Counted from the stretch's first letter, positions 50 to 64,000 are shown. The stretch is 64,000 nucleotides of DNA from an uncultured Syntrophaceae bacterium (GCA_964387765.1 CAYLXS010000001.1:437-64436); one strand, 5' to 3'. Program-made: numbers and translations. The notes: generated from the letters alone by a model not told the origin.

Positions 50-89
50 GGGTTTTGTTGGGTTTCGTGCCTTAACCCAACCTACAACT
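50..89. repeat. REP-like hairpin element, copy A (GGGTTTTGTTGGGTTTCGTGCCTTAACCCAACCTACAACT)
   Basis: An 8-bp stem (GTTGGGTT/AACCCAAC) surrounds a 9-nt loop. Near-identical copies lie at 29858-29897 and 57773-57807. This copy encodes the last codons (..CRLG) and the stop of the 72..3320 ORF. Confidence 0.8.
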
Positions 90-3000
90 TGCCAGGAATT
101 CGGATAAAATAACCTCTCTTTTAGCTGAAGGAAACCGTTGGCCCGGTCTTTTTGCATCAAGGATGTTATATGGAATGCTTTTTTTGAGAATTGCCAAAAC
201 TTTCAGGGGATTACTTTCCTTTTCGATTTTTTTCTTGATATTCTTTGTAGTATTTTTTGGAATCACCCCGTCTTCATATCCCCTTAAAACCAGCCTGATG
301 TATTCCTCGTCGTCATCGGTGAAGCCCTGATACTTTTTGAATTCTTTTGCCTTCAAACGTGTGATAACATAGCGTTCATTGGAAAGCCCGCCACGTCCGC
401 CTGATCCTTTCGGTTCAAAATTTTCGCCTGAAGTGATAAAATGGAACTGTTCTTTGTTGTCTTCCAGCATCGGATAGAACTGTTTTGGTATTTTCTCCCG
501 TTTTGTATCTTTGTCGCATTCCAGGATATCCGCAGCTTCGAAGAAGGTGCATTCTCGGGAACCATTGCCGCCTGACATAAAGAACTTTTTCAATTTGCCT
601 TTTCGGAAGAAGGTAAGCAACTGATCGTTTTCCATATCACATTGTCTGGATGATCGTGCTTTCTTCGGAAGGTTTTTAATCTCTTCAAAAAGCGAGGGTT
701 GATTATCACGAATATCACGAATAAACTTCAGGTATTTCAACTCGGATTGTCCTTCTTCATCATCACCCACATACGTCCTTTTGTCCGCAAGGCGTTGATA
801 CAGAGTGTCTCCGAATAATTCATGGGACGACACGACTTCTTCATCGGTAAGATATTTTGCATCCTCTCCAAGCGTGTCGTGGAAAGCCTGAATCTTGGAT
901 TTGATGTTATCTTCCAAGCCGATATGTCTGTCTGATTCATCCGTGGGGAAAAAGTTAAACACATAAATACTTGTGTGTTTAGTTCCTACACGATTCACAC
1001 GCCCAACCCTTTGAAGCACCTTTGTCGGATTCCAGGGCAGGTCATAATTTACTACGATATTTGAACGGTGCAGGTTGATGCCTTCCGCAAGGATGTCAGT
1101 GCTGATAAGAATCCGCAAATCGCCATTCTGGGTCTTGTGGGTGGGGTCGTAATTTTCTTTGATAATACGCCGCGCATCTATGACTGATTTTTTGCCTTCC
1201 GCGGTTTCTCCACCTTCGCTGGAGTAAAACAATACCTTGTTCGGGAACTGCCTGTTAAGATTATCATAAAGATAATCGCCTGTTTCTTTTGATTCTGTAA
1301 ATATTATAAGTTTCTTGTCTTTCAGCTCATTGTTTGTTTTCAGATTATCAATAAAGGTTTCTATTTTCGGATCCGAATCAACAACCGACCACAGATCGCG
1401 TATTGCTTTCAGTATCTTCAAGTCAGACTTGAGGTCTTCAATTAATTTTGGAGTAAATTCATCGGCGCTATATTTTTCAAGCTTTTCCTGCTCTATGAGC
1501 TGAAGTATTTTTTCTTCGTTGTCTTCATCCAGAAGATCGTAAACATCCACTTTTTTGCTGATAAGAATTGTCCCCTTATTGAACATATCAATGAAATTAA
1601 TATAGGATTCAACAAAGCGATCCAATGTATTGCGAAAGGCATAGAAGCTGCTTTCAAGACGTTTAACGAGAATGACCTTCATAAAGCCACCGACATTTCG
1701 CTGGCTTTGCTTTTCAAATTCAGGAAGTTCCCTTTTTAGGTAGAGTAGCGGTGTGTAACGTGCGTATTTAATTTTTTTCAGCAGTTCTATAGTTTGACCA
1801 AAAACAGCGCTTATATGTTCATCAAACTGGTAAATGAACCGCCTCGGATCTTCAACATCAGGGAAAAATAGGCCCTGTTCATCAATATCCTTATTGAAGT
1901 ATTTTGTAATTTCAGACCGCGTCCTCCGCACCATCGTATATTTCAGGATATTTTCCCTGATTTTTCCGGAACCTTCCTTAATGGCGCTGATGTATTCCGG
2001 GTCTGATTTTTTGATATTTTTGAGTCTGTGCATGAGACTCTTAAAGAATTTTTCTAGATTCGGCACTCCCGGAATTGTTGATTTCTTGGGGATCTGAAAG
2101 AGCTTCAATTGGCTTAAAATATCATCAAAGGTATTGTTCAAGGGTGTCGCGGAAACCAGAATGACTTTTTTGCCGTGGCAGACCTGATGAATCATTTCAA
2201 AGCCCTGGGTATATTCATTTCTGAAACGGTGCGCCTCATCAATGAAGATGTAATCATATCTTTCCGTTCCATCTTTGATGATCTGGTCAAGTTTACCGAG
2301 AGATTCCACCCTTGTTTTCTTGATTCCAAAGTCAAAGAATGTCTCTTCCCAGTAATCCTTGAGTACGGGAGGGCATATAACCAGCTTACCACCAGGCAGC
2401 TGTTGAGCCAGCATGGCGGATATAAATGTTTTTCCCAGACCGACAACATCGGCCAGAAACACTCCGTTGTAAGCATCCAGGATTTTCTTGGCGGAGACGA
2501 CTGCCTGTTTTTGATATTCAAGCTCCATAAAACCTTCAGGCAGGTCCAACTCAATCTCTTCATCAAGATTGATGTCTTCCTTCAGGTATTCGTAGAGCAT
2601 TTTCAGATATAGCTGATAGGGGATGATGGCGTCATTGAGCCAGGTTTTGTTCCGGATAGTTTCGACATATTCCTGTGAGATGTTTACGCCGTCTTTCCAC
2701 AGCGCTTCAAATTGCTTCAGGGCGAATTCAACATCAATCCTGCCTTTTAATTCGACGTTGAATTCCCTGTTTGCGATAAGGCCGCTTTCTGAAAAATTGC
2801 TGGAACCTGTGATTACCCTGCCAAAATCCAACTCCCCCTCTTTGAAACGGCTGACATAGACCTTGGCATGTATGTTTTCACTTGGATAGGCGCGCAGTTC
2901 CATCTTTTTCCCGTTGCCGCCATTGGCCATGTCTTGCTCTTTGTCGGCACAATCGGCAGTCAGAAATTCCAGGAATTTTCTGATGCCTATTTCAGTTTCG

Positions 3001-3320
3001 TAAGAGTCTTCCGATTCATCCATTTCGGATGCCGTCTGTTCGCTGAACATGCGTTTGGTTCTGCTGTGTGATTCAAAATCGAATTCGCCCCCGGATCGTG
3101 TCTCTTCAATAATCTCATAGGTCTTCTGATCTACATTGAGACCAACCAGGATTCTGATTTTGTCAATGGATTCAAAGGATTCGTATAACTGATAGAACCC
3201 GCTGGTGCGAAAATACCCGACCAGAACATCAAAGTATTGCACGTGCTCTAATGTCTTTTTGAACCTGTCAAGCAGTGCGTAACCCGGTTCATTTGTGAAA
3301 AAGGTTGTATCGGTAATCAT
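72..3320 (-). CDS. PLD-family nuclease domain fused to an SNF2-family helicase (1082 aa)
   Basis: The N-terminus has a single HKD-type motif (HAKVYVS...GSSNFSESG). SNF2/SF2 motifs are I LADVVGLGKT, II FIDEAHRFRN, III LVSATPLNN and VI QRVGRVNRVG. The last ~250 aa carry no motif I recognise. Confidence 0.85.
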   Translation of the reverse strand: MITDTTFFTNEPGYALLDRFKKTLEHVQYFDVLVGYFRTSGFYQLYESFESIDKIRILVGLNVDQKTYEIIEETRSGGEFDFESHSRTKRMFSEQTASEMDESEDSYETEIGIRKFLEFLTADCADKEQDMANGGNGKKMELRAYPSENIHAKVYVSRFKEGELDFGRVITGSSNFSESGLIANREFNVELKGRIDVEFALKQFEALWKDGVNISQEYVETIRNKTWLNDAIIPYQLYLKMLYEYLKEDINLDEEIELDLPEGFMELEYQKQAVVSAKKILDAYNGVFLADVVGLGKTFISAMLAQQLPGGKLVICPPVLKDYWEETFFDFGIKKTRVESLGKLDQIIKDGTERYDYIFIDEAHRFRNEYTQGFEMIHQVCHGKKVILVSATPLNNTFDDILSQLKLFQIPKKSTIPGVPNLEKFFKSLMHRLKNIKKSDPEYISAIKEGSGKIRENILKYTMVRRTRSEITKYFNKDIDEQGLFFPDVEDPRRFIYQFDEHISAVFGQTIELLKKIKYARYTPLLYLKRELPEFEKQSQRNVGGFMKVILVKRLESSFYAFRNTLDRFVESYINFIDMFNKGTILISKKVDVYDLLDEDNEEKILQLIEQEKLEKYSADEFTPKLIEDLKSDLKILKAIRDLWSVVDSDPKIETFIDNLKTNNELKDKKLIIFTESKETGDYLYDNLNRQFPNKVLFYSSEGGETAEGKKSVIDARRIIKENYDPTHKTQNGDLRILISTDILAEGINLHRSNIVVNYDLPWNPTKVLQRVGRVNRVGTKHTSIYVFNFFPTDESDRHIGLEDNIKSKIQAFHDTLGEDAKYLTDEEVVSSHELFGDTLYQRLADKRTYVGDDEEGQSELKYLKFIRDIRDNQPSLFEEIKNLPKKARSSRQCDMENDQLLTFFRKGKLKKFFMSGGNGSRECTFFEAADILECDKDTKREKIPKQFYPMLEDNKEQFHFITSGENFEPKGSGGRGGLSNERYVITRLKAKEFKKYQGFTDDDEEYIRLVLRGYEDGVIPKNTTKNIKKKIEKESNPLKVLAILKKSIPYNILDAKRPGQRFPSAKREVILSEFLASCRLG

Positions 3321-3337
3321 TCGTTTTTCCTGTGATG

Positions 3338-3408
3338 AAAACTCCCGTTTCTGTTTTGAAAGAAACGAGGCTTTTGTGATTATCTGCCATCTTTAGAACC
3401 TTTTTGAG
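3338..3408. repeat. Cassette-flanking box plus hairpin, copy 1 (also terminator-like)
   Basis: The 22-nt core TTTTGTGATTATCTGCCATCTT (3372-3393) is identical to 4589-4610. An adjacent 9-bp bulged hairpin (3344-3370) has T/A runs on both sides. It lies just 3' of the HEPN stop and 5' of the SNF2 start. Confidence 0.8.
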
Positions 3409-3429
3409 ATTGTTGAAATCGTAATATAT

Positions 3430-3873
3430 TTATACCAGCTCAGGGTGCTTTTCTTTGAGCCACTTCATGACATCTTTCCTTAATTCTCCGGCAAACTCAA
3501 TCAGTTCGTTTGCATCTTTTTCAGTAACACCCCCGACATAATCGTATTCAACGATATTTCTCTTGCTTCTGCATGTGTCGAGGTATTTGACATCTTCTTC
3601 CCTTTCTTTGCCAAGGATTACAGAAAGTGCCTTTATCGTCCTGTAATGCTGTAGAGTCCTTTCCGGCCTGAACCCTTCAGCATGCAGGGGTATTGTGCAA
3701 AGTTTTAACGCGGCATTATATGCGATACCGAATCGCCAGTCGGGCGAAATATCCCCGGCGGCATCTTCCAGATCTCTATTCACAATCTGGAGCAGATTAT
3801 CTATCTCTTCCCTGCTGGATTTATGCAGACGTAACCAACCGTATTCAACCCATTGCTCCAAGCTCATTTTCAT
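3430..3873 (-). CDS. HEPN-domain protein (toxin partner of the MNT gene)
   Basis: A small helical protein that overlaps the upstream MNT gene by 29 nt. The RSKRNIVEYDY region sits where the HEPN R-x4-6-H/Y signature lies. The MNT-HEPN pairing is the classic arrangement. Confidence 0.7.
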   Translation of the reverse strand: MKMSLEQWVEYGWLRLHKSSREEIDNLLQIVNRDLEDAAGDISPDWRFGIAYNAALKLCTIPLHAEGFRPERTLQHYRTIKALSVILGKEREEDVKYLDTCRSKRNIVEYDYVGGVTEKDANELIEFAGELRKDVMKWLKEKHPELV

Positions 3874-4432
3874 TTCCTATAACGAAAATCTTTGGCTTCT
3901 TAAGTATGCCTGTAATGAAATGATCGCCTTTTTCCCTGCGTTTCATAAATTCTTCATTATTCATGACATGGGGATTAATTTCTCTCCCGATTTTTCCAGA
4001 TAGTTCGGAAAGCAGAGCGGTTACTTCCCGCAATCCGAGGGTTCCGATCACCATAAGATCTATGTCGCTTTGTGTCTTTTCATCATGACGGGCAATCGAA
4101 CCAAAGACAAAAGCATATTCGATATCGGAAGACTTATTCAAGACTTCTTTTATAATATCAACCAGTCCGATGGTTTTTAGTACAATGTTTCGGATTTCGG
4201 GATAGAGCGGATGTTCTTTGTTAGCTTGATAATAAAGGCGGTTCCCGTCCCTGTTTTTCTTGATCAACTCCAGACGATGCAGTTTTTTCAACTCCTGCTG
4301 TACTGTGCCTGTTGTAAATCCTGACCGCCTCTCGATCTCGCGCATGTGCAGCGCATCGTCACGGGTACCGAAGAGTATCCGGAAGATTTCCGCTCTTATC
4401 TTCGATGAAAGTATTTCGGCGAGTATATTCAT
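3845..4432 (-). CDS. Winged-HTH plus minimal nucleotidyltransferase (MNT) antitoxin-type protein
   Basis: N-terminal wHTH (HMREIERRSGFTTGTVQQELKKL) and an NTase motif, FGSIARHDEKTQSDIDLMV (G-S...D-x-D). Confidence 0.85.
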   Translation of the reverse strand: MNILAEILSSKIRAEIFRILFGTRDDALHMREIERRSGFTTGTVQQELKKLHRLELIKKNRDGNRLYYQANKEHPLYPEIRNIVLKTIGLVDIIKEVLNKSSDIEYAFVFGSIARHDEKTQSDIDLMVIGTLGLREVTALLSELSGKIGREINPHVMNNEEFMKRREKGDHFITGILKKPKIFVIGNENELGAMG

Positions 4433-4557: not shown

Positions 4558-4626
4558 AAAACCCCGTCTCTGTTAAGAGCAACGGGGTTTTTGTGATTAT
4601 CTGCCATCTTCAAGGCCTTTTTTGTG
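4558..4626. repeat. Cassette-flanking box plus hairpin, copy 2 (bidirectional terminator-like)
   Basis: The same 22-nt core lies at 4589-4610. The CCCCGT..ACGGGG hairpin (4562-4587) is flanked by AAAA and TTTTT. It lies just 3' of the 4653..4898 ORF stop. Confidence 0.8.
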
Positions 4627-8759: not shown

Positions 8760-10220
8760 ATGGCACATCGGGGTCTGAATACATTTCTACTGATCATTGT
8801 TGCAGTTTCTTTTATATCGTCATGCAGTCCTTTCAGACCCCCCGTTAGAACATCACCGGCCGGCGAAGTGCCCCTGACCTTCTCTCTCTACCCAACCGGA
8901 CCCGAGCGGTCGGAGCGGTGGTGGGAAGAATTCGATGACGAGGATTTGAACTCCCTGATCGAGGAGGCCTTGTCGGGCAGTTTCACTCTCAAAGAGGCCT
9001 GGGCCCGCCTGAGACAGGCGAAGGCCCTGGCAGTTCAGTCGGGAGTGGATCTCTATCCCGACCTCTCAGTCACGTCCGGGTCTTCTTTCAAACGCCAACG
9101 GTCAGAAAACAGTTCCGGCAGCCGGTCAACCGCATCGACCGAGAGCTATTCCCTGGGACTGAGCAGCAGTTACGAACTGGACCTCTGGGGACGAATACGC
9201 TCCGAACAGGAGGCAAAGATTCTCGATGCGACCGCCACCCGCGAGGACATCAATACGGCAGCCATGACGCTCACCGCAGAGGTTACGAGAAACTGGATCA
9301 ATATCATTTCGCAGAGAAGACAAAAAAAGATCCTGAATGAGCAATTCGCCATCAATATAACCTATCTGGAATTGATAGAACTTCGATTCCGTAAAGGGAT
9401 GGTCTCCGCTCTCGATGTCTATCAGCAGCGGCAGGTTGTCGAGCAGGTCAGGGCGCAACTACCCCTCGTCGAAGAGCAGGAACAGCTCCTGATGCACAAA
9501 CTGGCCCTGCTCCTCGGGAAGCCGCCCCGGACGTCGCTCACGATCAGCAGAAACACGCTCCCTGAATCTTCCGAAATCCCGAAAACGGGTCTCCCCGCGG
9601 ATCTTCTCGCGGCCAGGCCGGATGTGCGCTCGGCGGGTTTTAAACTGCGTTCAGCGGACTGGCAGGTCTCTTCCGCGCGGGCAAATCGTCTTCCCTCCAT
9701 CAGCCTGACCGCTTCGGCGACGTACCAGGCACCCGAAATTAACCTGCTCTTTCATACCTGGCTGATAAATCTCGCTGCAAACCTGACGGCCCCCCTCATT
9801 GACGGAGGACGTCGGGCGGCGGAGGTAGATCGTGCACGAGCGGTGGTGGATGAAAATCTGTCCGCTTACCGGAGGACGGTCTATACGGCGATCAAAGAGG
9901 TTGAAGATGCGCTGGTCACCGAGGAGAAAAAACGCCGGCATATCAAGGCCCTCAAGGCGGAGATTACCGCCGCCGGCCGGGCCCTCGATGAGGCCCGAGA
10001 TCGGTATCTAAAGGGAATAGACAATTATCTGCCTGTCCTGACACAGATCCTCAAGGTCCAGAGCCTTGACGTTGATCTGATCAAACGGCAGGCAGAACTG
10101 CTGATCGCACGTGTGGGCCTCTACCGTTCACTGGGAGGAACCTGGACGGACAAGCTTACCCCCGGCGGCGGTATGAAAGCAATAGAACCAACAAAAACCT
10201 CCAGCAATGATAAAGGGTGA
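8760..10220 (+). CDS. RND efflux outer-membrane factor lipoprotein (NodT family)
   Basis: Lipobox (..FISSC), 486 aa with two OEP-type repeats, and first position in a three-gene efflux operon. Confidence 0.9.
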   Translation: MAHRGLNTFLLIIVAVSFISSCSPFRPPVRTSPAGEVPLTFSLYPTGPERSERWWEEFDDEDLNSLIEEALSGSFTLKEAWARLRQAKALAVQSGVDLYPDLSVTSGSSFKRQRSENSSGSRSTASTESYSLGLSSSYELDLWGRIRSEQEAKILDATATREDINTAAMTLTAEVTRNWINIISQRRQKKILNEQFAINITYLELIELRFRKGMVSALDVYQQRQVVEQVRAQLPLVEEQEQLLMHKLALLLGKPPRTSLTISRNTLPESSEIPKTGLPADLLAARPDVRSAGFKLRSADWQVSSARANRLPSISLTASATYQAPEINLLFHTWLINLAANLTAPLIDGGRRAAEVDRARAVVDENLSAYRRTVYTAIKEVEDALVTEEKKRRHIKALKAEITAAGRALDEARDRYLKGIDNYLPVLTQILKVQSLDVDLIKRQAELLIARVGLYRSLGGTWTDKLTPGGGMKAIEPTKTSSNDKG

Positions 10221-10227
10221 AACTTAC

Positions 10228-11493
10228 ATGGAAAGACAGGAAAATACGAACACATCACCAGCGGATCAGACGGAACCAACCGGCACGAGCCGAAAGAGCC
10301 TGAAGATCATACTACCGTTTCTGATTCTCATTATCGCGATTGCCGTCGCGTTCTATGTCGGTAGCACCGCCCCCAAGGCACTTAGAACCCCTCCCGTGCG
10401 GGAGGCGCCTCTGGTGGAGACACTGCCGGCTCAGCACACTTCGGAACGGATAATAATCCCGGCGATGGGAAGCATCATCCCGGCCCGGGAGATCACGCTC
10501 AAATCACAGGTTTCGGGAGATATCTTGAAGATAAACCCCCGATTCACGGAAGGCGGACATCTAAAAAAGGGCGATGAGCTCCTGAAGATAGATGATCAGG
10601 ACTACCGCCTGGCCGTGGCCGAGCAGCACAGTCAGGTTGTCGGCGCCGAGTACGCTTTGAAACTGGAAATGGGACGTCAGGATGTCGCGCAGCGAGAGTG
10701 GGAACTGTTGGGCGGCGGCGACTCCTCGAAGGCTCCCGATTCCGAACTGGCCCTCCGCAAACCCCATCTTGAAAAGGCGCAGGCGGATGTCGCGTCAGCA
10801 CATGCCGCGATGAAGCGGGCCGAGCTGGATCTCGCCCGCACTACCGTTCGCGCTCCCTTTAACTGTATTGTGCGCACAAAAAATGTGGACCTGGGTTCCC
10901 ACGTCTCTTCCCAGGACCAGCTAGCAGAACTGGTGGGAACGGATGAATACCGGGTGCGGGCTTCCGTACCGCTCGACCGCCTCAAATGGATCTCCATCCC
11001 CCGTGGAAGGGATGATTATGGATCTAAGGCGCGTATCATCTACGGGAACGGGACCGGATATGAACGGAAGGGCAGCGTCGTCAAGTTGCTGGCAGACCTC
11101 GAAGAGGGGGGAAGAATGGCCCGTATCATAATCGCGGTCAAAGATCCGCTCGACTTAAAATCCCCGGAAAGCACCCGGCCGCCTCTTCTGATAAGCGAAT
11201 ATGTCCGCGTCGCGATCGAGGGCCCAGAGCTGAAAGGGATCATCGCCCTGCCCCGCTCCGCCCTGCGTGATGGTAAAAATATCTGGATCGCGGGCAAAGA
11301 TGACAGGCTCGATATACGGAGTGTAAATATCGTCTGGCGAGGAGAGACTACCGTACTGGTACAGGATGGAGTGGCGGACGGCGATCGGATTATTATTACC
11401 GATCTTGCAACCCCGATACAGGGAATACATGTCATGGTGAACAAACCGGCGAGCACAACCGCGGTGACAACACCCGGGCCTGAGAAACAGTAA
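10228..11493 (+). CDS. RND efflux periplasmic adaptor (MFP/HlyD family)
   Basis: A TM anchor plus coiled-coil and barrel segments, located between the OMF and the pump. The ATG at 10228 follows AAGGGTGA and is preferred over the overlapping 10207 start. Confidence 0.85.
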   Translation: MERQENTNTSPADQTEPTGTSRKSLKIILPFLILIIAIAVAFYVGSTAPKALRTPPVREAPLVETLPAQHTSERIIIPAMGSIIPAREITLKSQVSGDILKINPRFTEGGHLKKGDELLKIDDQDYRLAVAEQHSQVVGAEYALKLEMGRQDVAQREWELLGGGDSSKAPDSELALRKPHLEKAQADVASAHAAMKRAELDLARTTVRAPFNCIVRTKNVDLGSHVSSQDQLAELVGTDEYRVRASVPLDRLKWISIPRGRDDYGSKARIIYGNGTGYERKGSVVKLLADLEEGGRMARIIIAVKDPLDLKSPESTRPPLLISEYVRVAIEGPELKGIIALPRSALRDGKNIWIAGKDDRLDIRSVNIVWRGETTVLVQDGVADGDRIIITDLATPIQGIHVMVNKPASTTAVTTPGPEKQ

Positions 11494-11520
11494 TCATTAG
11501 CGAAGGAACCGATACTGACG

Positions 11521-14500
11521 ATGATGGAAAAGAACAGCGAAAAACGAGGTCCTCTCGCATGGATGGCGGGCAATTCCGTTGCCGCCAACCTGCTGATGAT
11601 CGTCCTGCTCGTGGGAGGCCTTATCTGGGCCCTTCAGATCAAGCAGGAGGTGTTCCCCGATTTTGACCCGGACCATGTAAACATCACCGTTGCCTATCCC
11701 GGGGCGAGTCCTGAAGAGGTTGAGCAGGCGATTATTCTTGCCGTTGAGGAGGCCGTTTCCGGCCTGGAGGGTATTAGAGAGATTACTTCCAGCGCGCGAG
11801 AAGGCTCAGGCTTTGTACAGGTAGAGATGATCGAGGGCTATGATAATCAGAAACTGGCACGGGATATTGAAAACGAGGTGGATCGCATCAGTTCCTTTCC
11901 TGAGGAAGCGGAAGATCCGCGAGTGGAGAGCACCCCTCATCGTCGGCAGGTCATCTCGCTGGTTTTGTACGGTGATCAGGATGAGCGAATACTCCGGGAA
12001 AAGGTTGAAGAGATCCGGGACAAACTCCTCCAGAACCCGGAGATTACCCAGGTGGACCTGTCCGGTATTCGTGACCTGGAGATCAGCATCGAGGTATCCC
12101 AGGATAAGCTGCGGGCCTATAACCTGACGCTCGATGATGTCGCGACAAAGGTACGGCAAGCATCCGTTGATCTCCCCGGAGGCGGCATCAAGACTGCCGG
12201 GGGCGAGATCCTGGTCCGCATGACGGAGCGGCGTGATTTCGGGGAACAATTCGCCCGCATCCCCATTATTTCCTCCAGCGACGGCACCCGCGTGCTCCTT
12301 GAAGATATCGCCACGGTGATCGATGGATTTGAGGATACGGATACTTACGCAACATACAACGGTAAGCCCGCCATGATGATCGACGTCTACCGGGTGGGCG
12401 ATCAAACCCCCCTGTCGGTGGGGGATGCCGTTATGCCATACGTGGAGGAATGGCGTCAGACACTGCCGGAGGGGATCAGTATCGATATACTGAGGGACAG
12501 TTCGGACGTGTACCGCCAGCGCCTGACCATGCTTCTCCATAACGGCTATATGGGTCTCGCCCTCGTGCTGATACTGCTCGGACTGTTTCTGGAGGCACGC
12601 CTGGCCTTCTGGGTGACCATGGGGATTCCAATATCCTTTCTCGGCTCGATCCTTTTTTTGCCGCATTTCGGAGTCAGCATCAACATGATGTCGATGTTCG
12701 CCTTTATCGTGGCGCTGGGAATCGTCGTGGACGACGCCATCGTGGTGGGAGAGAACATCTATACTTTCCGCGAAAAGGGTTATTCCTTCCGGAGGGCGGC
12801 CATTGAGGGAGTGCGCGAGGTGGCCATGCCAGTCACGTTCAGCATACTCACCAACATCGTGACCTTTACGCCTCTCCTCTTTGTACCAGGGATTCCCGGA
12901 AAAATCTTCAAGTCGATCCCGATTGTTGTGATCATCGTTCTAGCCATTTCCCTGGTGGAGAGTCTCTTCATACTTCCGGCCCACCTGGGACGCCGGAGCG
13001 ATAAGCCCGACCATGCGATCATGGCATGGTTGCACATGAGGCAGCAACGCTTCAGTAACCGGTTCAGCCGGCTTGTCAGGGAACGGTACGGACCCTTTCT
13101 GGACTGGGCCCTTACCTGGCGGTACCTGACGGTCGCCATCGGACTGGCGATCCTGATCATCACCCTTGTCTATGTGAACAGCGGGCGGCTGGGAATCACA
13201 CTGATGGAGCGGATCGAGTCGGACTTCGCCCAGGTGGAAGTCGCACTCCCCTACGGATCGGCAATTGAGAAGACAGAGGCGGTACAGACAACCCTTATAC
13301 AGGCGGCACGGAAGATTGCAGACGAAAACGGCGGGAAAACTCTGGTCAAGGGTATCTATTCTCGAATCGGGGCCCCGGTCAATGGAACGGCAGGCAGCCA
13401 TACCTGCCGATTGCGCGTATATCTCACCCCGGCCAATGAGCGCCCCATGGAGACGGGTGATTTTGTGAAGGTCTGGCGCCGCGAGGTAGGCGCGATTGCC
13501 GGTCTGGAAAGCCTCATTTTCAAGTCTGATGCCGGGGGACCCGGTTCACGGGCCTCCATGTCCATTGAACTGAGCCACCGGGATCTGGCGGTGCTTGAGG
13601 CCGCTGGTGCTGAGTTAGCCGAAGACTTGAGGTATTTCCCCAAAGTTAAGGATATTAATGATGGTTTCGCTCCTGGAAAGCAGCAGATCGACTTCATGAT
13701 TCGCCCGGAAGGCAGGGCCCTCGGTCTGACAGCTCGTGATGTTGCCGGCCAGGTCCGCAACTCCTTTTACGGAAGCATGGTGCTGCGTCAGCAACGAGGA
13801 CGCAACGAGGTAACCGTCATGGTGCGCCTCCCCGAAAATGAGCGCACGTCGGAATACACCCTCGAAGAACTGATGCTCAGGACGCCGACCGGCCAGGAGG
13901 TCCCGCTGAAGGAAGCAGTCACCATGAAGCGGGGACGTGCCTACACGGAGATAGACCGCAGAGATGGACGGCGGGTCATCACGGTGACAGCGAATATAAA
14001 TCCCCCCAGCGAGGCAAGCAGTGTTCTGAACACCCTCAAGGCGGAAACTCTTCCGGAGCTGAAACGGAAGTATGCCGGTCTGAACTATGGGTTTGAGGGA
14101 CGTCAGGCGGATCTTACGGACAGCATGAATAGCCTCTTTATGGGACTGGTGCTGGCCATGCTGGTTGTATACGCCCTGCTTGCTATCCCGTTTCGCAGTT
14201 ATATCCAGCCGCTGATTATCATGGTGAGCATCCCCTTCGGAATCGTGGGAGCGATCTTCGGTCATCTTCTCATGGGCTACAGCCTCAGCGTGATGAGCCT
14301 GTTCGGGATTGTGGCCCTCACTGGTGTGGTGGTCAACGATTCGCTGGTGTTGATCGATTTTGCCAACCGACAGCGGGCAAAGGGCAAAAATCCGCACGAT
14401 GCTATTCATACGGCGGCAATCAACCGCTTCCGCCCGATCCTCCTGACATCGCTCACGACCTTTGGAGGACTGACCCCTATCATGCTCGAAACCGCTAGAC

Positions 14501-14679
14501 AGGCCCGTTTCATGATTCCCATGGCCATTTCACTCGGCTTCGGGGTCCTCTTCGCAACCCTGATCACACTGATTCTGGTGCCCTGCTTCTACCTGGTGGT
14601 TGAGGATCTTAAGTTGAAAAAACCCGGCGAGTTATCGGACGTCGGAGTGAGAGAACCCGTTGATGTAACGGGTAGATGA
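11521..14679 (+). CDS. RND efflux permease (AcrB/CzcA family)
   Basis: 1052 aa with 12-TM architecture and conserved GIVVDDAIVVGENI / GVVVNDSLVLIDF segments. Confidence 0.95.
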   Translation: MMEKNSEKRGPLAWMAGNSVAANLLMIVLLVGGLIWALQIKQEVFPDFDPDHVNITVAYPGASPEEVEQAIILAVEEAVSGLEGIREITSSAREGSGFVQVEMIEGYDNQKLARDIENEVDRISSFPEEAEDPRVESTPHRRQVISLVLYGDQDERILREKVEEIRDKLLQNPEITQVDLSGIRDLEISIEVSQDKLRAYNLTLDDVATKVRQASVDLPGGGIKTAGGEILVRMTERRDFGEQFARIPIISSSDGTRVLLEDIATVIDGFEDTDTYATYNGKPAMMIDVYRVGDQTPLSVGDAVMPYVEEWRQTLPEGISIDILRDSSDVYRQRLTMLLHNGYMGLALVLILLGLFLEARLAFWVTMGIPISFLGSILFLPHFGVSINMMSMFAFIVALGIVVDDAIVVGENIYTFREKGYSFRRAAIEGVREVAMPVTFSILTNIVTFTPLLFVPGIPGKIFKSIPIVVIIVLAISLVESLFILPAHLGRRSDKPDHAIMAWLHMRQQRFSNRFSRLVRERYGPFLDWALTWRYLTVAIGLAILIITLVYVNSGRLGITLMERIESDFAQVEVALPYGSAIEKTEAVQTTLIQAARKIADENGGKTLVKGIYSRIGAPVNGTAGSHTCRLRVYLTPANERPMETGDFVKVWRREVGAIAGLESLIFKSDAGGPGSRASMSIELSHRDLAVLEAAGAELAEDLRYFPKVKDINDGFAPGKQQIDFMIRPEGRALGLTARDVAGQVRNSFYGSMVLRQQRGRNEVTVMVRLPENERTSEYTLEELMLRTPTGQEVPLKEAVTMKRGRAYTEIDRRDGRRVITVTANINPPSEASSVLNTLKAETLPELKRKYAGLNYGFEGRQADLTDSMNSLFMGLVLAMLVVYALLAIPFRSYIQPLIIMVSIPFGIVGAIFGHLLMGYSLSVMSLFGIVALTGVVVNDSLVLIDFANRQRAKGKNPHDAIHTAAINRFRPILLTSLTTFGGLTPIMLETARQARFMIPMAISLGFGVLFATLITLILVPCFYLVVEDLKLKKPGELSDVGVREPVDVTGR

Positions 14680-14682
14680 GAT

Positions 14683-14715
14683 AAAATATTGGGGTGAGTG
14701 ACCGGATTTGAACCG
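14683..14715. repeat. Direct repeat (att-like): partial copy of the tRNA-His 3' end
   Basis: The 33-nt sequence AAAATATTGGGGTGAGTGACCGGATTTGAACCG is identical to 20114-20146. It covers 26 nt of the tRNA-His 3' half plus 7 nt beyond the CCA. Confidence 0.9.
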
Positions 14716-14789
14716 AGCACTTTGGCCCTAAATAATTGAAATAACTATGGTTCAAATGACCTTGGCATCAAAATGACACTATCTGTGAT

Positions 14790-14834
14790 TGGGGCGGCAG
14801 GATTTGACCTGCAAACGCTGGCATCGCCAAGCCA
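14790..14834 (-). pseudogene. Degenerate tRNA-like 3' fragment (T-arm/acceptor-like)
   Basis: The reverse complement reads ..GCAGGTCAAATCCTGCCGCCCCA, a T-arm with a 6-nt loop (one base short) plus an acceptor 3' strand. There is no matching 5' half and no CCA. Confidence 0.3.
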
Positions 14835-15213
14835 GAAGGCTAAGGCGGTCAAGACTGCAAATACAAAGCTTCACTGTGGCTGATCGGGCCAAATCATTGA
14901 ATGCGGGATGAAACATGCTACTACCTGACAACTTGTTTTCCGCTCATCCCGGCTATAGCTTACTTCCTGAACTCCTTAGATGACGGATATCCAACATTTC
15001 AATCTTATTGATGTTTTTTCTCAGAAATGAAATAAAAATGGCCTTGAAGACCTGTATATGATATTGTAGTAGAAATTTGTATTTTCTAAGGACACAAATC
15101 TAGCGCATTGAATAAAAAGTAATGTTAATAGAATGCGAAGTCTCGGATTTTCGAAAGGTGGTGAGATACCGAGGGGTTATGAAAAACTACCACCATAGAG
15201 AAAGGATTGACCG

Positions 15214-15573
15214 ATGAATACAGACATGAAAGCAAAGATCAAGTTTGGAGCCGGAGGCATTATTATTGGGGCCGCACTCGCCATGATTATTGGTTTCAGC
15301 TGGGGTGGATGGACAACCTCCAGCACTACCACCGAGATAACGGAAAAGGCGATCCTGGCAAATAAGGTGGCGATCTGCGTCGCCCAATTTATTAAGGACC
15401 CGAACTACGAAGAAAACCTTAAGAAATTTGAGAAACTCGACTCATACGGAATGAAAAACACAAGTGACTATGTACGGAAATTTGGCTGGGATAAAATGCC
15501 CGGGGAAGAAAAAGTCGACAGTGATGTATGCAAGGCATGTGCTAAGGGCATTGAAGCTCTTATCAAAAAATGA
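15214..15573 (+). CDS. Hypothetical small membrane-anchored protein
   Basis: One N-terminal TM helix (GGIIIGAALAMIIGFSWGGW). No family recognised. Confidence 0.5.
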   Translation: MNTDMKAKIKFGAGGIIIGAALAMIIGFSWGGWTTSSTTTEITEKAILANKVAICVAQFIKDPNYEENLKKFEKLDSYGMKNTSDYVRKFGWDKMPGEEKVDSDVCKACAKGIEALIKK

Positions 15574-15700
15574 GATAAACTGTTATCTTCACAACTAACT
15601 TCGTCTTTAAACCCTTTTTGGAAAAGTTATAACAGTATTTCCGCTTCTCAAGTGAGGGCTGGGTTTTATGTTTTAATCATTCTTTTTAATAGGTGATCTT

Positions 15701-17623
15701 GTGAGAGATAATAATAAGACAAAGAAGCAGCTCGTACAGGAACTGACGGCATTGCGCTCGCAAAATGCCGATCTGAAAAAATCAACAGCCGGAAATCTAT
15801 CAACTGCGTCTGCATCCGAGGAGTCCGCTCGCTATGCAGAAAGTATTTTGGGAACTGTTCGAGAGCCCCTTTTGGTCCTGGATGCGGATCTGAAAATAGT
15901 CTCGGCAAACCACAACTTTTACAAAACTTTTAAAGTAACTCCGGATGAGACGATTGGGAGTTTTATCTATGACCTTGGAAACAAACAATGGGACATCTCT
16001 AAACTTCGGGAGCTGCTTGAAGAAATTCTTCCTGAAAAAGAAACGTTCAACGGCTTCGAGGTTACCCATAATTTTCAAGACATCGGTCATAAAATCATGC
16101 TGCTCAATGCCCGCCAGATTGAACAGGGGATGGGCAAGGAACGGATCATTCTGCTGGCTATCGAGGATATCACCGCGCGCAAAAAGGCCGAAAACGACCT
16201 GCATCTTAGCGATGAGAAATTTCGCAGCTATGTAGAACAGGCTTCCGAAGCAATTTACCTTTTTCAATTGAAAGAACCAATATCGGTTGATATGCCCGTT
16301 GAAGAACAAATCAAAAATCTTTACGAAGGTTATGTAATTGAAGCAAACGATTCCCTGGCAAAAATGTATGGTTTCGACAAAGCAAACGAACTAAATGGAA
16401 TGACCCTTGCCGAATTTCATGGAAGCACAGATAATCCGAAGAATTTAGAATTCCTTAGAGCTTGGATTGAAGCAAATTACCGCATTACTGATACGGAGTC
16501 TAAAGAAGTTGACAACGATGGAAATGAACTTTGGATTACGAATAATTTAATAGGACATGTTGAAGACGGTTATTTGATACATATATGGGGTACACAAACC
16601 AATATAACAGAAAGAAAGCAGGCAGAAGAGAAGCTTGAAGAAGCAAATACAATAATTAATAAAAGCCCTTCAGTAGCTTTTACATGGAAAAATGAGGAAG
16701 GGTGGCCAGCCAAATATGTTTCGAAAAACGTAGGTTCACTACTCGGATATACTGTAAAAGATTTCACATCCGGGAATGTAGCTTACCTAAAGTGTATTCA
16801 TCCTGATGATATCGAACGTGTAATACAGGAAGTCATGGAGGTTAGCAGTGATAAGAGTAAAGAGGAATTTGTTCACGAACCATATAGAGTCGTTACAAAA
16901 GATGGCAAAGTGAAATTTGTTAGTGACTGGACATTTATCGTTAGAGATGAAAAGGGTAATATCACGCATTATAAAGGGATTATAGCAGACATCACCAAGC
17001 GCAAGCAGGCAGAGGAAAACCTTCAGGATACCCTTGAAAGTCTCAGGAAGGCTGTTGCCACGACCATCCAAGTCATGGTGTCCACAGTGGAGGCACGAGA
17101 CCCCTATACGGCCGGCCACCAACTCCGAGTTGCCGATCTTGCCCGTACCATCGCCACGGAGATGGGATTACCCCAGGAGAAGATCGAAGGTATTCGTATG
17201 GCGGGTTCCATCCATGACATCGGTAAATTATCCATCCCCGCGGAGATATTGTCCAAACCCGGCAAGCTGTCAGACATTGAGTTTTCCCTGATAAAAGAGC
17301 ACGCCCGGAAAGGGTATGAGATGCTGAAGGATGTGGACTCCCCCTGGCCCCTGGCAGAGATTGTCTACCAGCATCATGAACGGATGGATGGTTCCGGCTA
17401 CCCCAGAAATTTGAAGGGGGATGAGATTCTCATGGATGCCCGCATTATGGCTGTGGCCGACGTGGTGGAGGGCATGGCTTCTCATCGGCCTTATCGTGCT
17501 ACTCTGGGGATTGACGCAGCTCTGAAGGAGATCGAGGATCAGCGGGGGGTTCTTTACGACGCGGACGTGGTGGATACCTGCCTGCGGTTGTTTAGGAAGA
17601 AAGATTATCAGCTTCAATCCTGA
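15701..17623 (+). CDS. PAS-domain sensor with a C-terminal HD-GYP domain (c-di-GMP phosphodiesterase type)
   Basis: GSIHDIGK and HHERMDGSGYP motifs, preceded by several PAS-like segments. GTG start. Confidence 0.9.
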   Translation: MRDNNKTKKQLVQELTALRSQNADLKKSTAGNLSTASASEESARYAESILGTVREPLLVLDADLKIVSANHNFYKTFKVTPDETIGSFIYDLGNKQWDISKLRELLEEILPEKETFNGFEVTHNFQDIGHKIMLLNARQIEQGMGKERIILLAIEDITARKKAENDLHLSDEKFRSYVEQASEAIYLFQLKEPISVDMPVEEQIKNLYEGYVIEANDSLAKMYGFDKANELNGMTLAEFHGSTDNPKNLEFLRAWIEANYRITDTESKEVDNDGNELWITNNLIGHVEDGYLIHIWGTQTNITERKQAEEKLEEANTIINKSPSVAFTWKNEEGWPAKYVSKNVGSLLGYTVKDFTSGNVAYLKCIHPDDIERVIQEVMEVSSDKSKEEFVHEPYRVVTKDGKVKFVSDWTFIVRDEKGNITHYKGIIADITKRKQAEENLQDTLESLRKAVATTIQVMVSTVEARDPYTAGHQLRVADLARTIATEMGLPQEKIEGIRMAGSIHDIGKLSIPAEILSKPGKLSDIEFSLIKEHARKGYEMLKDVDSPWPLAEIVYQHHERMDGSGYPRNLKGDEILMDARIMAVADVVEGMASHRPYRATLGIDAALKEIEDQRGVLYDADVVDTCLRLFRKKDYQLQS

Positions 17624-17638
17624 AGGAAGAGAACGGAA

Positions 17639-19684
17639 ATGTGGAGTTACAGGCTCGTGTCACTGCGATCGATTGTTAACAATAATTTCCAGAGTCTGAT
17701 CATAGGGCTTTTGCTGTTTACGGGGCTTTATCTCACAAGTCTGTACAGCTATCTTCTGTTTCATACTCTCGCGGAAGGTTTTTCAATCGTCATCGCCGTC
17801 TCCCTCTTCCTGATAGCCTGGAACACACGTCAACATACAGCAAATAATTATGTCCTGTTTCTCAGCATCGCCTTTCTGTTTGCCGGCCTCATCGATTTTT
17901 TCCACACCATGGCCTACAGGGGGATGGGGATCTTTACCGGCTATGATGCCAACCTGCCTACGCAGCTATGGATTGCCGCCCGCTACCTTCAAAGTCTGTC
18001 TCTGCTCGCAGCGCCATGGTTCATCGATCGGAAACTGAACATCCGCGCCATCCTGGTTTTTTATCTTTCCGCGACCATCCTGCTGCTGGCGACCGTCTTT
18101 TCCGGCACGCTGTTTCCCGCCTGCTTTGTCGAAGGCCAGGGGCTGACCCCCTTCAAAATCGTCAGCGAATACATCATCTGCTTTGTCCTTATAGCTTCCC
18201 TGGTCTTGCTGTTACGGCGGCGTGACAAGTTTGATCCACACATCCTGCGATTGATTGTCTGGTCCATCCTCTTTACAATCGTCTCGGAACTGGCCTTCAC
18301 CTTTTACGTTAGCGTCTACGGCTTATCAAATCTGATCGGCCATTATTTCAAAATACTCGCGTTTTACCTCATTTACAGAGCGATCATCGTGACCGGTCTG
18401 GAAAATCCGTACAGCCTCATTTTTCACGATTTAGAGCAGAATCGCCAAGAGACACAGACCATTCTTGATGCCTCCCCCATCATGATCTTTTACAAGGACA
18501 GCGAAAACAGATTCATCCGCGTGAACAAGGCGTTTGCCGAGGCAATGAAGCTGGCCAAAGAGGGAATCGAGGGGAAAACAGCCCTTGAAGTTTTTCCCGA
18601 TCAGGCGACGAACTATTTGAAGGACGACAAGGAGGTTATCGCATCGGGTAAGCCAAAAATCGGCATTATCGAACCGATCGACACCGCAAGCGGCACCAGG
18701 TGGCTGCACACCGATAAGATACCGTACAGGGATATCGACGGGAACATTATCGGCATTATCGGCTTTGCCGTCGACATCACGGAGCGCAGGCATGCGGAGG
18801 AGGCGCTACATGAGAGCGAGAAACGTTACCGGAGCTTATTTGAAGAGACTCATGCCATCATGCTGCTCATTGATCCGGATAACGGCACCATTGTAGATGC
18901 CAATCCCGCCGCGTTTACCTACTATGGCTGGAGCCGTGAAGAGTTGAAAAGGCGCAAAATTGATGGAATAAACACGATGACAAGCAAAGAAGTTTCAGCG
19001 GAGATACAATTGGCGCTCTCTGAGAAGCGCAATGTATTTTTTTTCAAACACCGCCGTGCTGACGGGACGCTCCGCGATGTGGAAGTTTACGCTGGACCGG
19101 TACCCATGAAAGGCAAAGTCCTGCTTTTGTCCATTGTTCACGATATCACCGACCGCAAGCGGGCGGTGGAACAGATCGAGCAGATGGCCTACCAGGATTC
19201 CCTGACGGGCCTTCCCAACCGGAAGCTCTTCTCCGATCGCCTTGGCATTGCCTTGACTCAGGCCCAGAGAAATAAAAAAGAGGTGGGAATCGCGATGCTC
19301 GACCTCGACAATTTTAAGGACGTGAATGACACCTTGGGCCATGCTGCAGGAGACCTTCTACTCAAGGCAGCGGCAGAGCGGCTGAGCGCAGCGCTGAGGA
19401 AGGGTGATACCGTTGCACGCATCGGTGGCGATGAGTTTGTGCTGATCCTTCCTGAACTGAAGGAAGCAGAAGATGCGATCCAGGTTGCACAGAAGATCGT
19501 TGACGGTTTTCGGAAACCCTTCCTCATTGACACCAATCAACTGGTTGTGACGACAAGTATCGGTATCGCAGTCTATCCCAATGATGGAGCAGATGGAGAT
19601 ATTCTTCTAAAAAATGCTGATATCGCTATGTATCAAGCCAAGGAGGCGGGTCGGGATCGATACCAGATCTACAACAAGGCATGA
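17639..19684 (+). CDS. Multi-TM sensor with PAS-PAS-GGDEF (diguanylate cyclase)
   Basis: An N-terminal multi-TM region of ~250 aa, two PAS domains, and RKGDTVARIGGDEF (an RxxD I-site plus GGDEF). Confidence 0.9.
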   Translation: MWSYRLVSLRSIVNNNFQSLIIGLLLFTGLYLTSLYSYLLFHTLAEGFSIVIAVSLFLIAWNTRQHTANNYVLFLSIAFLFAGLIDFFHTMAYRGMGIFTGYDANLPTQLWIAARYLQSLSLLAAPWFIDRKLNIRAILVFYLSATILLLATVFSGTLFPACFVEGQGLTPFKIVSEYIICFVLIASLVLLLRRRDKFDPHILRLIVWSILFTIVSELAFTFYVSVYGLSNLIGHYFKILAFYLIYRAIIVTGLENPYSLIFHDLEQNRQETQTILDASPIMIFYKDSENRFIRVNKAFAEAMKLAKEGIEGKTALEVFPDQATNYLKDDKEVIASGKPKIGIIEPIDTASGTRWLHTDKIPYRDIDGNIIGIIGFAVDITERRHAEEALHESEKRYRSLFEETHAIMLLIDPDNGTIVDANPAAFTYYGWSREELKRRKIDGINTMTSKEVSAEIQLALSEKRNVFFFKHRRADGTLRDVEVYAGPVPMKGKVLLLSIVHDITDRKRAVEQIEQMAYQDSLTGLPNRKLFSDRLGIALTQAQRNKKEVGIAMLDLDNFKDVNDTLGHAAGDLLLKAAAERLSAALRKGDTVARIGGDEFVLILPELKEAEDAIQVAQKIVDGFRKPFLIDTNQLVVTTSIGIAVYPNDGADGDILLKNADIAMYQAKEAGRDRYQIYNKA

Positions 19685-20113
19685 AGATGCGATACCATTG
19701 CATTGCTTGTTCAAAGATTTTCAACTTGAAAGCGCCTGATTTCGAATTGGCACCAATAACCGGCACTCTTGACGGTTTCCTTTATCTTACCTGGGCAGTA
19801 CGGGTTGAAAGCTGCTACGCGAAACTATTTCCCTCATTTATTGACTTCAATAAACTATACGTAACAAAATGATGGTTGACTATTTGCAGGACAGTTGTCA
19901 TCATCTATCTGTATTTCTTATTGAATTAGGAAGTGGAGGCAGAGATGACAAAAAGCAATAAGGCGTTTGAGCGATATTGTAAAATCGAATCAGATGATGC
20001 CAGGATGGTTTATCAGAGGAATCGGGGACAAGTAACTCCCATTCAAAGATCACAAAAAAAATTGACCCTGTGTTTTCACTGTCAAAAAAAGAGGGTATTA
20101 TGGATTTTATTAG

Positions 20114-20146
20114 AAAATATTGGGGTGAGTGACCGGATTTGAACCG
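20114..20146. repeat. Direct repeat (att-like) within and flanking the intact tRNA-His
   Basis: Identical 33-mer to 14683-14715. Confidence 0.9.
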
Positions 20147-20198
20147 GCGACCTCCTGGGCCACAACCAGGCACTCTAACCAACTGAGCTACACCCACC
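20121..20198 (-). tRNA. tRNA-His (GTG)
   Basis: The hand-folded cloverleaf has G-1, acceptor GTGGGTG/CACTCAC, anticodon loop TTGTGGC, T-loop TTCAAAT, and an encoded CCA. Confidence 0.9.
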
Positions 20199-20210
20199 AC
20201 ATAATATTTA

Positions 20211-20287
<77 letters not shown>

Positions 20288-29849: not shown

Positions 29850-29857
29850 AATTCTGA

Positions 29858-29897
29858 GGGTTTTGTCGGGTTTCGTACCTCAACCCAACCTACAACT
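29858..29897. repeat. REP-like hairpin element, copy B
   Basis: GGGTTTTGTCGGGTTTCGTACCTCAACCCAACCTACAACT, with one stem mismatch. It fills the nadC-birA spacer and supplies the last two nadC codons and the TAG stop. Confidence 0.8.
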
Positions 29898-57759: not shown

Positions 57760-57772
57760 GGGCTGAAGATTC

Positions 57773-57807
57773 TTGTTGGGTTTCGTGCCTCAACCCAACC
57801 TACATCT
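57773..57807. repeat. REP-like hairpin element, copy C
   Basis: TTGTTGGGTTTCGTGCCTCAACCCAACCTACATCT, between the convergent antiporter and nnr genes. Confidence 0.8.
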
Positions 57808-63620: not shown

Positions 63621-64000
63621 TCAACAACATGAGCTACTGAATAACAGATAGAACGGGATTGTCAATAATTCTTTATTCTAGGATTTCCCCACAAGTCCTC
63701 TGTATCTACCACCGCGAAGCGGTTTAGTTCTTCAAGCGGTAATAGTCGATTTTATCCGAAAGCGAGTTTGAGGACTTGTAGGTGGAGACAATGTCTGGCT
63801 CATGTCATATTTCCATGAACCACACTCATCCAGTTCAAAGACAACGGTGCAGATTGATTTTTCAGACTCACTCATTTACTACGGGATGAAATCTGATCTT
63901 AACTGCGCTCTCGTTGCGTCATATATGGAAGCAGTCTGTCTATTCACCGGAAAAATACAGTCTATATAGCCATTGAATTACGTAAACAATACGGCCGTCT

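Follow-up and report, generated by a model that had tools for sequence, protein, structure and literature searches.

A probable decayed remnant of an insertion at tRNA-His, with the stump of a two-tyrosine-recombinase unit, in an uncultured Syntrophaceae bacterium

Islands inserted at tRNA genes by tyrosine integrases, including decayed ones, are bounded by direct repeats of the tRNA 3' end, and the intact tRNA lies at one end. Cis-mobilisable elements (CIMEs), catalogued in ICEberg 2.0 (PMC6323972) and reviewed together with integrative and mobilisable elements (IMEs; PMC5704250), are flanked by attL and attR sites and have no recombination and transfer genes of their own. Here, we analysed a stretch of 64,000 nucleotides from an uncultured Syntrophaceae bacterium (GCA_964387765.1 CAYLXS010000001.1:437-64436; hereafter the window) and in it a 5.4-kb islet (14683-20146), which lies between two copies of a 33-bp repeat beside a tRNA-His gene and carries genes for a predicted phosphodiesterase and a predicted cyclase of cyclic di-GMP (c-di-GMP). 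We found that the islet is probably, at roughly 60%, the decayed and now immobile remnant of a tyrosine-integrase-type insertion at tRNA-His that was rearranged later.

A pattern search of the window found two exact copies of the 33-mer AAAATATTGGGGTGAGTGACCGGATTTGAACCG, at 14683-14715 and 20114-20146, both on the plus strand. No further copy was present in the window with up to three mismatches allowed, and 0 were expected from 100 shuffles. ARAGORN placed the tRNA-His(gtg) gene at 20121-20197 on the minus strand (Rfam, 66 bits), next to tRNA-Arg(tct) at 20211-20287 on the same strand (ARAGORN, Rfam). The right copy consists of the last 26 nt of this intact tRNA-His (part of the T-stem, the T-loop, the acceptor strand and CCA) and 7 nt of downstream flank. 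The left copy, an exact match to the same 26 nt and flank, starts 3 nt past the stop codon of an RND permease gene (open reading frame (ORF) 11521-14679), and both copies are on the minus strand when read as tRNA fragments. A preliminary description of this DNA had given the same positions and called them an attL/attR-like signature; the positions are exact, and the geometry fits. The locus thus has direct repeats of a tRNA 3' end at both boundaries and the intact tRNA at one end, as a tRNA-integrated island does. This supports the view that the repeat is the scar of a tyrosine-integrase-type insertion into the tRNA-His 3' end, with the left copy as the distal att scar. Both copies, with the islet between them, were recovered in at least eight separate contigs from different ENA and JGI samples, and the arrangement is therefore not an assembly artefact. 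Among the loci compared (designated by L numbers), the left copy is present in L002-L007, L009 and L011-L014, and L001 has a single mismatch in it. We found no third tRNA-His fragment that could serve as an outer island boundary in the window and the 10 kb to its left, with up to five mismatches allowed.

The comparison of strains showed that tRNA-His is a real recombination boundary. Two same-species contigs (L017 and L019), recovered via homologues of the flanking BACON-domain protein, are 98.8-98.9% identical to the window from 33301 down to 20115-20120; leftwards they are unrelated to it or only 77-89% identical. Their homology to the window ends at the tRNA-His T-arm, which reads GCCGGTTCAAATCCGGT in the window, GCCGGTTCAATTCCGGT in L019 and GGGGGTTCAAGTCCCCT in L017, and the differences between L017 and the window are compensatory stem changes. 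One species thus carries three tRNA-His 3' alleles with compensatory T-stem changes between them. Downstream of tRNA-His, L017 has a FecR gene and diverged (77-89%) versions of the ECF-sigma and MFS genes of the window, and lacks both the RND operon and the islet, while L019 has non-coding debris. A breakpoint inside a tRNA, with the 3' segment replaced, is the expected product of a tRNA-targeting tyrosine integrase.

Furthermore, we compared the site between species. The nearest DprA matches among species-representative genomes came from uncultured Syntrophales/Syntrophaceae-like Thermodesulfobacteriota, with a best identity of 83-87%. The tRNA-Arg/tRNA-His-BACON-dprA-topA block is kept in these sister species. 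Beyond tRNA-His they have a histidine kinase, a sigma-54 regulator and fatty-acid genes, with variable inserts of 0.3-3 kb before the tRNA; L098, L100 and L177 have other DNA at the site and no islet. Between the sigma-54 regulator and tRNA-His, L098 (4420-6545) contains about 2 kb more than L100 (6174-6441), and therefore the site downstream of tRNA-His varies in other species too. By eye, one ORF of this extra DNA resembles the C-terminus of an IS110-type transposase and another a PEP-CTERM protein. A T-arm of the GGGGG/CCCCT-like type is found in the L017 strain and seven related genomes. The T-arm type of the window (GCCGG/CCGGT), together with the ATATTTT flank, occurs only in the window strains, L019 and L102. 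In L102, a different species (DprA 83% identical), the identical 33-mer stands at tRNA-His and the contig starts at its first base (L102 1-84); either the same att allele is common to both species, or it was spread by a related element. The histidine kinase was also tried as a marker for the far boundary of the variable region and set aside, as the likely orthologue found in this sample series has other neighbours and no fragment of tRNA-His beside it.

On the two sides of the tRNAs, the window differs in content. All genes to the right are housekeeping genes (dprA, topA, valS, miaA, mutL, pgk, fusA, ligA and others), and all genes to the left are accessory, comprising the RND/MFP/OEP operon, a metal-resistance protein, an ECF sigma factor, an MFS transporter and defence genes. 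tRNA-His divides a conserved core from a strain-variable accessory region in this Syntrophales-like lineage. The islet is the tRNA-proximal 5.4 kb of that region, which is longer than 30 kb, and we take the left 33-mer most readily for an att scar inside the region, left where one acquisition met the next.

The preliminary description had stated that the islet has no integrase. This is correct for ORFs: no recombinase ORF is present in 14716-20113, and the small ORFs in the two segments suggested for a recombinase search (14716-15213 and 19685-20113), as well as those of L019, gave no recombinase-like Pfam match at E<=10. Neither the rest of the window nor the 10 kb to its left yielded an integrase. 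However, a 22-mer scan and downstream alignments identified 19855-19955 (plus strand) as the stump of a unit with two tyrosine-recombinase genes. These 101 bp comprise a 16-bp inverted repeat CTATACGTAACAAAAT (19855-19870), a promoter or leader region, a ribosome-binding site, and the ATG (19945) plus three codons of recombinase 1. The homology of the stump to intact units ends at about 19955, and the window has neither the right inverted repeat nor B'', the other half of the docking site described below. The 22-mer at 19849-19870 occurred in 59 metagenome contigs from many samples and datasets, many of which end 70-100 nt inside the unit, as contigs do at sequences present in many copies.

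The unit was found in loci L038-L096, for example at L087 10190-12306 and L070 8970-11099. Intact copies are about 2.3 kb long and encode a tyrosine recombinase of 355-375 aa, whose gene is overlapped by that of a second one of 297 aa. In both proteins, a SAM-like N-terminal domain is combined with a Phage_integrase catalytic domain, and the R..HxxR..H..Y residues can be seen. Their best matches are generic Xer models, all below the curated cut-offs, and with 81 and 106 bits against the NCBIfam integrase_gron cut-off of 265 they do not qualify as IntI-type integrases. The 16-bp inverted repeats stand at both ends of the unit and a 7-bp (C)AATAAA at both junctions. The unit occupies one fixed point in a dispersed repeat of about 200 nt (B/B''), and both orientations were seen, with the opposite one in six loci. 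The DNA flanking the unit differs between loci directly after the right inverted repeat. The unit is a discrete mobile unit, since its copies hardly differ from one another whereas the B repeats next to them share only about 65% identity, and since it is reversed in six loci. A full further copy lies about 10 kb beyond the window in L076, which overlaps the right end of the window at 98.7% identity. Those relatives and protein homologues that have names are metagenome-assembled genomes (MAGs) of Syntrophales, Desulfobacterales and other deltaproteobacteria. The junction expected of a unit circle (GTTACGTATAG-N7-CTATACGTAAC) was absent from all 188 loci compared and from the viral contigs, and annotated plasmid relatives of recombinase 1 reached at most 35% identity.

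An alternative allele of the islet was found in L014 and L043. In both, the RND gene, the 33-mer and the next 142 bp are identical to the window; this non-coding spacer (14716-14857), delimited by alignment with L014 and by BLAST against L014/L043, is thus common to the two alleles. After the spacer, the cargo of L014/L043 is a CBAH-family hydrolase and an IS91-like zinc-finger remnant, followed by a module of about 200 bp that is 83% identical to window 19754-19955. There, the recombinase 1 ORF stays open for at least 41 codons, to the contig end. The left junction of the two alleles is the same to the nucleotide (…GGTCAAGACTG/CAAATAC…), and beyond it they differ in the repeat B' (about 65% identity), the cargo, repeat B (83%) and the subfamily of the recombinase unit. 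With the same left junction, a different cargo and an intact recombinase start in L014/L043, the mobility genes were therefore lost by deletion. A recombinase operon thus once sat at the tRNA-proximal end of the islet and was removed in this way. The preliminary description had proposed that the mobility genes were lost or that the cargo moves in trans. Loss is favoured by the stump and by L014/L043, while movement in trans has no support, and the stump accounts for the "missing" integrase in the sense that mobility genes were lost.

Taken together, we infer an order of events in which the RND and defence DNA further left would be an older island and the islet would have been added onto it. 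The 2.3-kb unit would then have inserted into repeat B at the tRNA-proximal end, where an integrase is expected. A later deletion would have taken all but the first 101 bp of the unit, the other half of its docking site and adjacent DNA, and the adjacent DNA plausibly included the integrase of the tRNA site.

The docking repeat B occupies 19683-19854 of the window (plus strand) and ends in CAATAAA (19848-19854), the 7-bp crossover or duplication sequence. With an nhmmer profile of 51 distinct copies, this repeat scored 103 bits (E 4e-30). Unoccupied sites, in which B is joined through AATAAA to B'', were present in L087, L066 and L105. In L105 (131-430), from a related species, such a site lies about 130 nt from the tRNA-His 3' end and is followed by the native tRNA terminator hairpin. 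A partial B-type repeat was also noted near the right end of the window (63729-63838, equal to L076 10247-10356), with 36 bits over profile positions 18-128 and no recombinase unit inside.

Another dispersed repeat, B' (14858-14978, plus strand), recognised from its copies in other loci, begins with CAAATACAAAGCTTCACTGTGGCTGATCGGGCC. Copies with 75-91% identity were found in L054, L041, L066, L095, L073, L084 (two), L042 and L043, and all begin at CAAATAC. A B repeat follows 1.6-8.7 kb downstream in the same orientation in each of the eight loci that have B' besides the window. B' may be a diverged B repeat, though the similarity between the two is very weak and amounts to only 4 bits. In L066 (2128-2200), B' directly follows the right end of a recombinase unit (GTTACGTATAG, then CAAATAC, then AAAGCTTCGCTG). 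The L066 contig begins inside recombinase 2 and finishes at the start of recombinase 1, as a circular or tandem cargo element of about 10 kb would assemble.

Among described elements, the closest to the unit are the multi-recombinase transposons tabulated in PMC10214605 (see also PMC8138268), namely RIT (RitA/B/C), Tn554 (TnpA/B/C), GInt (GinA-D) and the strand-biased circularising elements (SEs; IntA/Tfp/IntB/Srap). Like these, the unit has adjacent, overlapping tyrosine-recombinase genes between terminal inverted repeats, is multi-copy and site-selective, and shows a short sequence repeated at both junctions. Unlike them, it has no recombinase-like gene beyond those of its two plain Xer-like recombinases and no accessory gene, measures only about 2.3 kb, and targets a dispersed repeat of about 200 nt. 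It shares the inverted repeats and the several copies of RIT elements, and its two genes differ from their three. Homologues and relatives with names belong to a deltaproteobacterial lineage outside the hosts listed for SEs, GInts and Tn554. IS1397 and the REP-targeting elements of the IS110 family insert into repeated extragenic palindromes by means of DDE or DEDD transposases. The unit resembles them in its insertion at one fixed position of a dispersed intergenic repeat in either orientation, and differs from them in its pair of tyrosine recombinases. As in integron cassette arrays, a repeat of one family stands behind each of the co-oriented genes and is the recombination site of a tyrosine recombinase; unlike integrons, the unit has recombinases far under the integron-integrase cut-off and no attI/Pc platform. 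A literature search found no published description of a two-recombinase unit of this kind, and the unit is more novel than the islet itself. It is possible, and we suggest it only tentatively, that it represents an undescribed class of very small (about 2.3 kb) elements with two Xer-like recombinases that dock in either orientation at a fixed CAATAAA. Together with the B/B' repeats, such elements would drive a cassette-like exchange of cargo beside tRNA-His, with the c-di-GMP pair of the window and the CBAH hydrolase of L014 as alternative cassettes.

The preliminary description had further noted that the islet carries a c-di-GMP synthesis/degradation pair. The islet is not a coherent c-di-GMP element. 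By its sequence relationships, it is a mosaic, and each of its pieces has relatives in other settings. The first piece (14980-15573, plus strand; defined by homologues and alignment) consists of a gene for a 119-aa small membrane protein (15214-15573) and its own upstream region of about 235 bp. The protein has one predicted transmembrane segment and no Pfam match. Of its 605 homologues, those with names come from MAGs of Desulfobacterales, Thermodesulfobacteriota and Deltaproteobacteria. These homologues occur singly, in unrelated surroundings, and the DNA upstream of one such solitary homologue (L025-L027) is 81% identical to the upstream region of the window gene.

The next gene (15701-17623, plus strand) encodes a PAS-domain HD-GYP protein (Pfam HD_5, 9e-39, and PAS families) with the motifs IHDIGK and HHERMDGSGYP, which correspond to the HD and HHExxDGxxGYP signatures of a predicted c-di-GMP phosphodiesterase. 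Its GC content at third codon positions (GC3) is 0.377 in codons 1-430 versus 0.635 in codons 431-640. This sharp break at about 16990 coincides with the onset of DNA identity to other loci: L187/L188 and L056 have HD-GYP domains that match 16991-17613 at 80-86% identity. The gene seems to have arisen by recombination between a PAS part low in GC and a catalytic part high in GC. The GGDEF gene (17639-19684, plus strand) starts 15 nt past the HD-GYP stop codon and encodes a MASE3-PAS-PAS-GGDEF protein (Pfam MASE3 2e-93, GGDEF 8e-53), a predicted membrane diguanylate cyclase with a RIGGDEF active site that conforms to GG[DE]EF and an RxxD I-site, RKGD, five residues upstream. We found a copy of this gene, with 92.9% nucleotide identity over 2020 nt, in another signalling cluster (L187) that consists of a cold-shock protein, a PAS protein, a MASE11-HD-GYP protein and a bactofilin; the last 540 nt of the window gene are 87% identical to L041. 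The domain assignments given earlier for the three proteins are thus confirmed. A conserved three-gene module was rejected, as the 119-aa homologues are solitary and the closest GGDEF homologues lie in a different cluster. The HD-GYP/GGDEF pair is one of several paralogous arrangements of this kind in the community (L041, L056). Both genes keep their catalytic motifs, and nothing suggests that they would fail as ordinary chromosomal signalling genes.

Between the stump and the right repeat lies a non-coding stretch of 158 bp (19956-20113), delimited by comparison of loci and by Pfam searches, which showed no similarity to any locus compared and whose ORFs gave no Pfam match at E<=10. We looked for arm-type motifs common to 14716-14855 and 19956-20113 and found only two overlapping 8-mers (0.7 expected), which is not convincing. 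In the left spacer, TGGGGCGGCAGGATTTGACCTGC (14790-14812) is like the reverse complement of a tRNA T-arm and acceptor end, in the same orientation as the tRNA-His fragment. It was considered as a second, stacked att scar and dropped, since ARAGORN and Rfam were negative, even when the stretch was cut for a truncated match. The GC3 of the islet pieces is 0.377, 0.517, 0.635 and 0.619 versus 0.45-0.53 in the core. The suggested comparison of composition with the flanks thus revealed heterogeneity (0.377-0.635) and not a uniformly foreign islet.

Like tRNA-anchored islands, the islet has the expected repeat and intact tRNA, strains and species differ at its site, and strains have different versions of the tRNA 3' segment that was replaced. 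Unlike such islands, it has no integrase ORF and no recovered empty-site allele, it is a mosaic with close relatives in other contigs (some from the same sample series) and is not foreign in composition as a whole, and its only recombinase trace belongs to a different, nested mobile unit. Several points weigh against a decayed integrase-type insertion. The empty site predicted earlier, with the RND stop codon joined to an intact tRNA-His, was in none of the contigs recovered with islet proteins or flanks, and therefore the insertion of exactly this segment is deduced from the repeat alone. The integrase responsible for the 33-bp repeat was not found in the window and the 10 kb to its left. The recombinases of the stump probably did not make the repeat, because their own target (repeat B with its 7-bp CAATAAA) does not resemble the 33-mer. 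Both 33-mer copies carry the non-native GCCGG-type T-arm, which presupposes that the tRNA 3' end had been replaced before or that the crossover lay outside the bases that differ. Composition does not flag the whole islet as foreign. Finally, repeat B beside tRNA-His may predate the islet, judging from L105, which is awkward with B lying inside the 33-bp repeats.

We weighed the insertion at tRNA-His against other explanations of the same DNA. The relevant element could instead be the segment from B' (14858) through the cargo and B to the two-recombinase unit, of a family whose members carry varying cargo and are inserted or swapped at one nucleotide, with the tRNA-His repeat as an older, unrelated scar that encloses it. 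The window and L014/L043 alleles fit such a cassette exchange, as they share their left junction to the nucleotide and differ in B', cargo, B and unit subfamily. So do the constant order of B' and, 1.6-8.7 kb downstream, a co-oriented B in eight other loci, and the fusion of the unit's right end to B' in L066 (GTTACGTATAG, CAAATAC, AAAGC…), as in a circle junction or tandem copy. In L041 and L056, HD-GYP and/or GGDEF genes are likewise followed by B and then by a recombinase unit (85-87% identity). However, B' is missing in most loci that have a recombinase unit and 9-13 kb of left flank. The sharp identity boundary between unit and B, the empty B/B'' sites and the two orientations show that the 2.3-kb unit moves alone, none of the elements recovered was complete in having both ends together with a target duplication, and the swap of alleles is equally explained by homologous recombination between common flanks. 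We regard cassette exchange as unlikely.

A still mobile, CIME-like islet, on whose 33-bp att sites an integrase from another place in the genome or an element adjoining at tRNA-His would act, is less probable again. The islet does agree with the description of a CIME (PMC6323972) in having attL/attR-like flanking repeats and no recombination and transfer genes of its own. Its repeats are perfect in most assemblies, it holds no recombinase ORF, tRNA-His has been used repeatedly in the population, and the L102 contig starts at the first base of an identical 33-mer at its tRNA-His. Yet no contig with islet proteins or flanks showed the empty site or another location of the islet. No cognate integrative and conjugative element (ICE) or IME on the same att site was identified in the viral contigs, the window and the 10 kb to its left, nor was any evidence of mobilisation. 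A helper phage or element with the same attP was sought in the viral contigs and rejected, with 0 matches to the 33-mer, the 26-mer, the spacer motif and the right-module motif. In one assembly, the left repeat is already imperfect, with a mismatch, and the interior, with its truncated recombinase unit and chimeric gene, looks like debris and points to decay, not to a maintained parasitic lifestyle. As for a repeat that arose by chance, by a local duplication unrelated to site-specific recombination or by mis-assembly, the failure to find an integrase or an empty site would agree with it. It is nevertheless very improbable, given that 0 chance matches are expected, that at least eight assemblies from different samples and assemblers have the same arrangement, and that the duplicated segment is the exact tRNA 3' end, in direct orientation, beside a strain and species breakpoint in the same tRNA.

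The accessory region to the left of the islet has its own variation. The OEP/MFP/RND efflux operon (8760-14679) has the highest GC3 in the window (0.63-0.67 versus 0.45-0.53 in the core) and is absent in L017, where FecR takes its position; it was probably acquired separately. The defence genes at 72-4432 comprise an HKD+Snf2 helicase (PADLOC C3a139/DrmD-like) and a candidate PDC-M05A/B pair (a nucleotidyltransferase and its partner). In the 10 kb to the left of the window (L032-L037) are a type IIG-like methyltransferase of the Eco57I/MmeI type, Dam, a ParB-methyltransferase and an FRG-domain protein, and the far end of this defence cluster varies by strain (L034 and L036 versus L032). A 56-nt direct repeat (3350-3405 and 4567-4622; 80% identical) lies directly upstream of two minus-strand defence-gene units and may be their common promoter or operator. 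A dispersed intergenic repeat of 41-45 nt, AGGGTTTTGTTGGGTTTCGTGCCTTAACCCAACCTACAACT, was also observed at 49-89, 29857-29897 and 57763-57807 (87-93% identity).

The islet represents ordinary genome decay, and decayed tRNA-anchored islets are common. It illustrates the way in which DNA gathers at a tRNA hotspot and is worn down there, until only att scars and useful cargo are left. Caution is called for as well: att repeats around cargo without an integrase are not evidence of mobilisation in trans, as here the stump of the deleted operon is visible and the locus is one of several alleles. The two-recombinase unit is a tractable candidate for a new kind of tyrosine-recombinase transposon, and it possibly drives the turnover of gene cassettes in these uncultured anaerobes.

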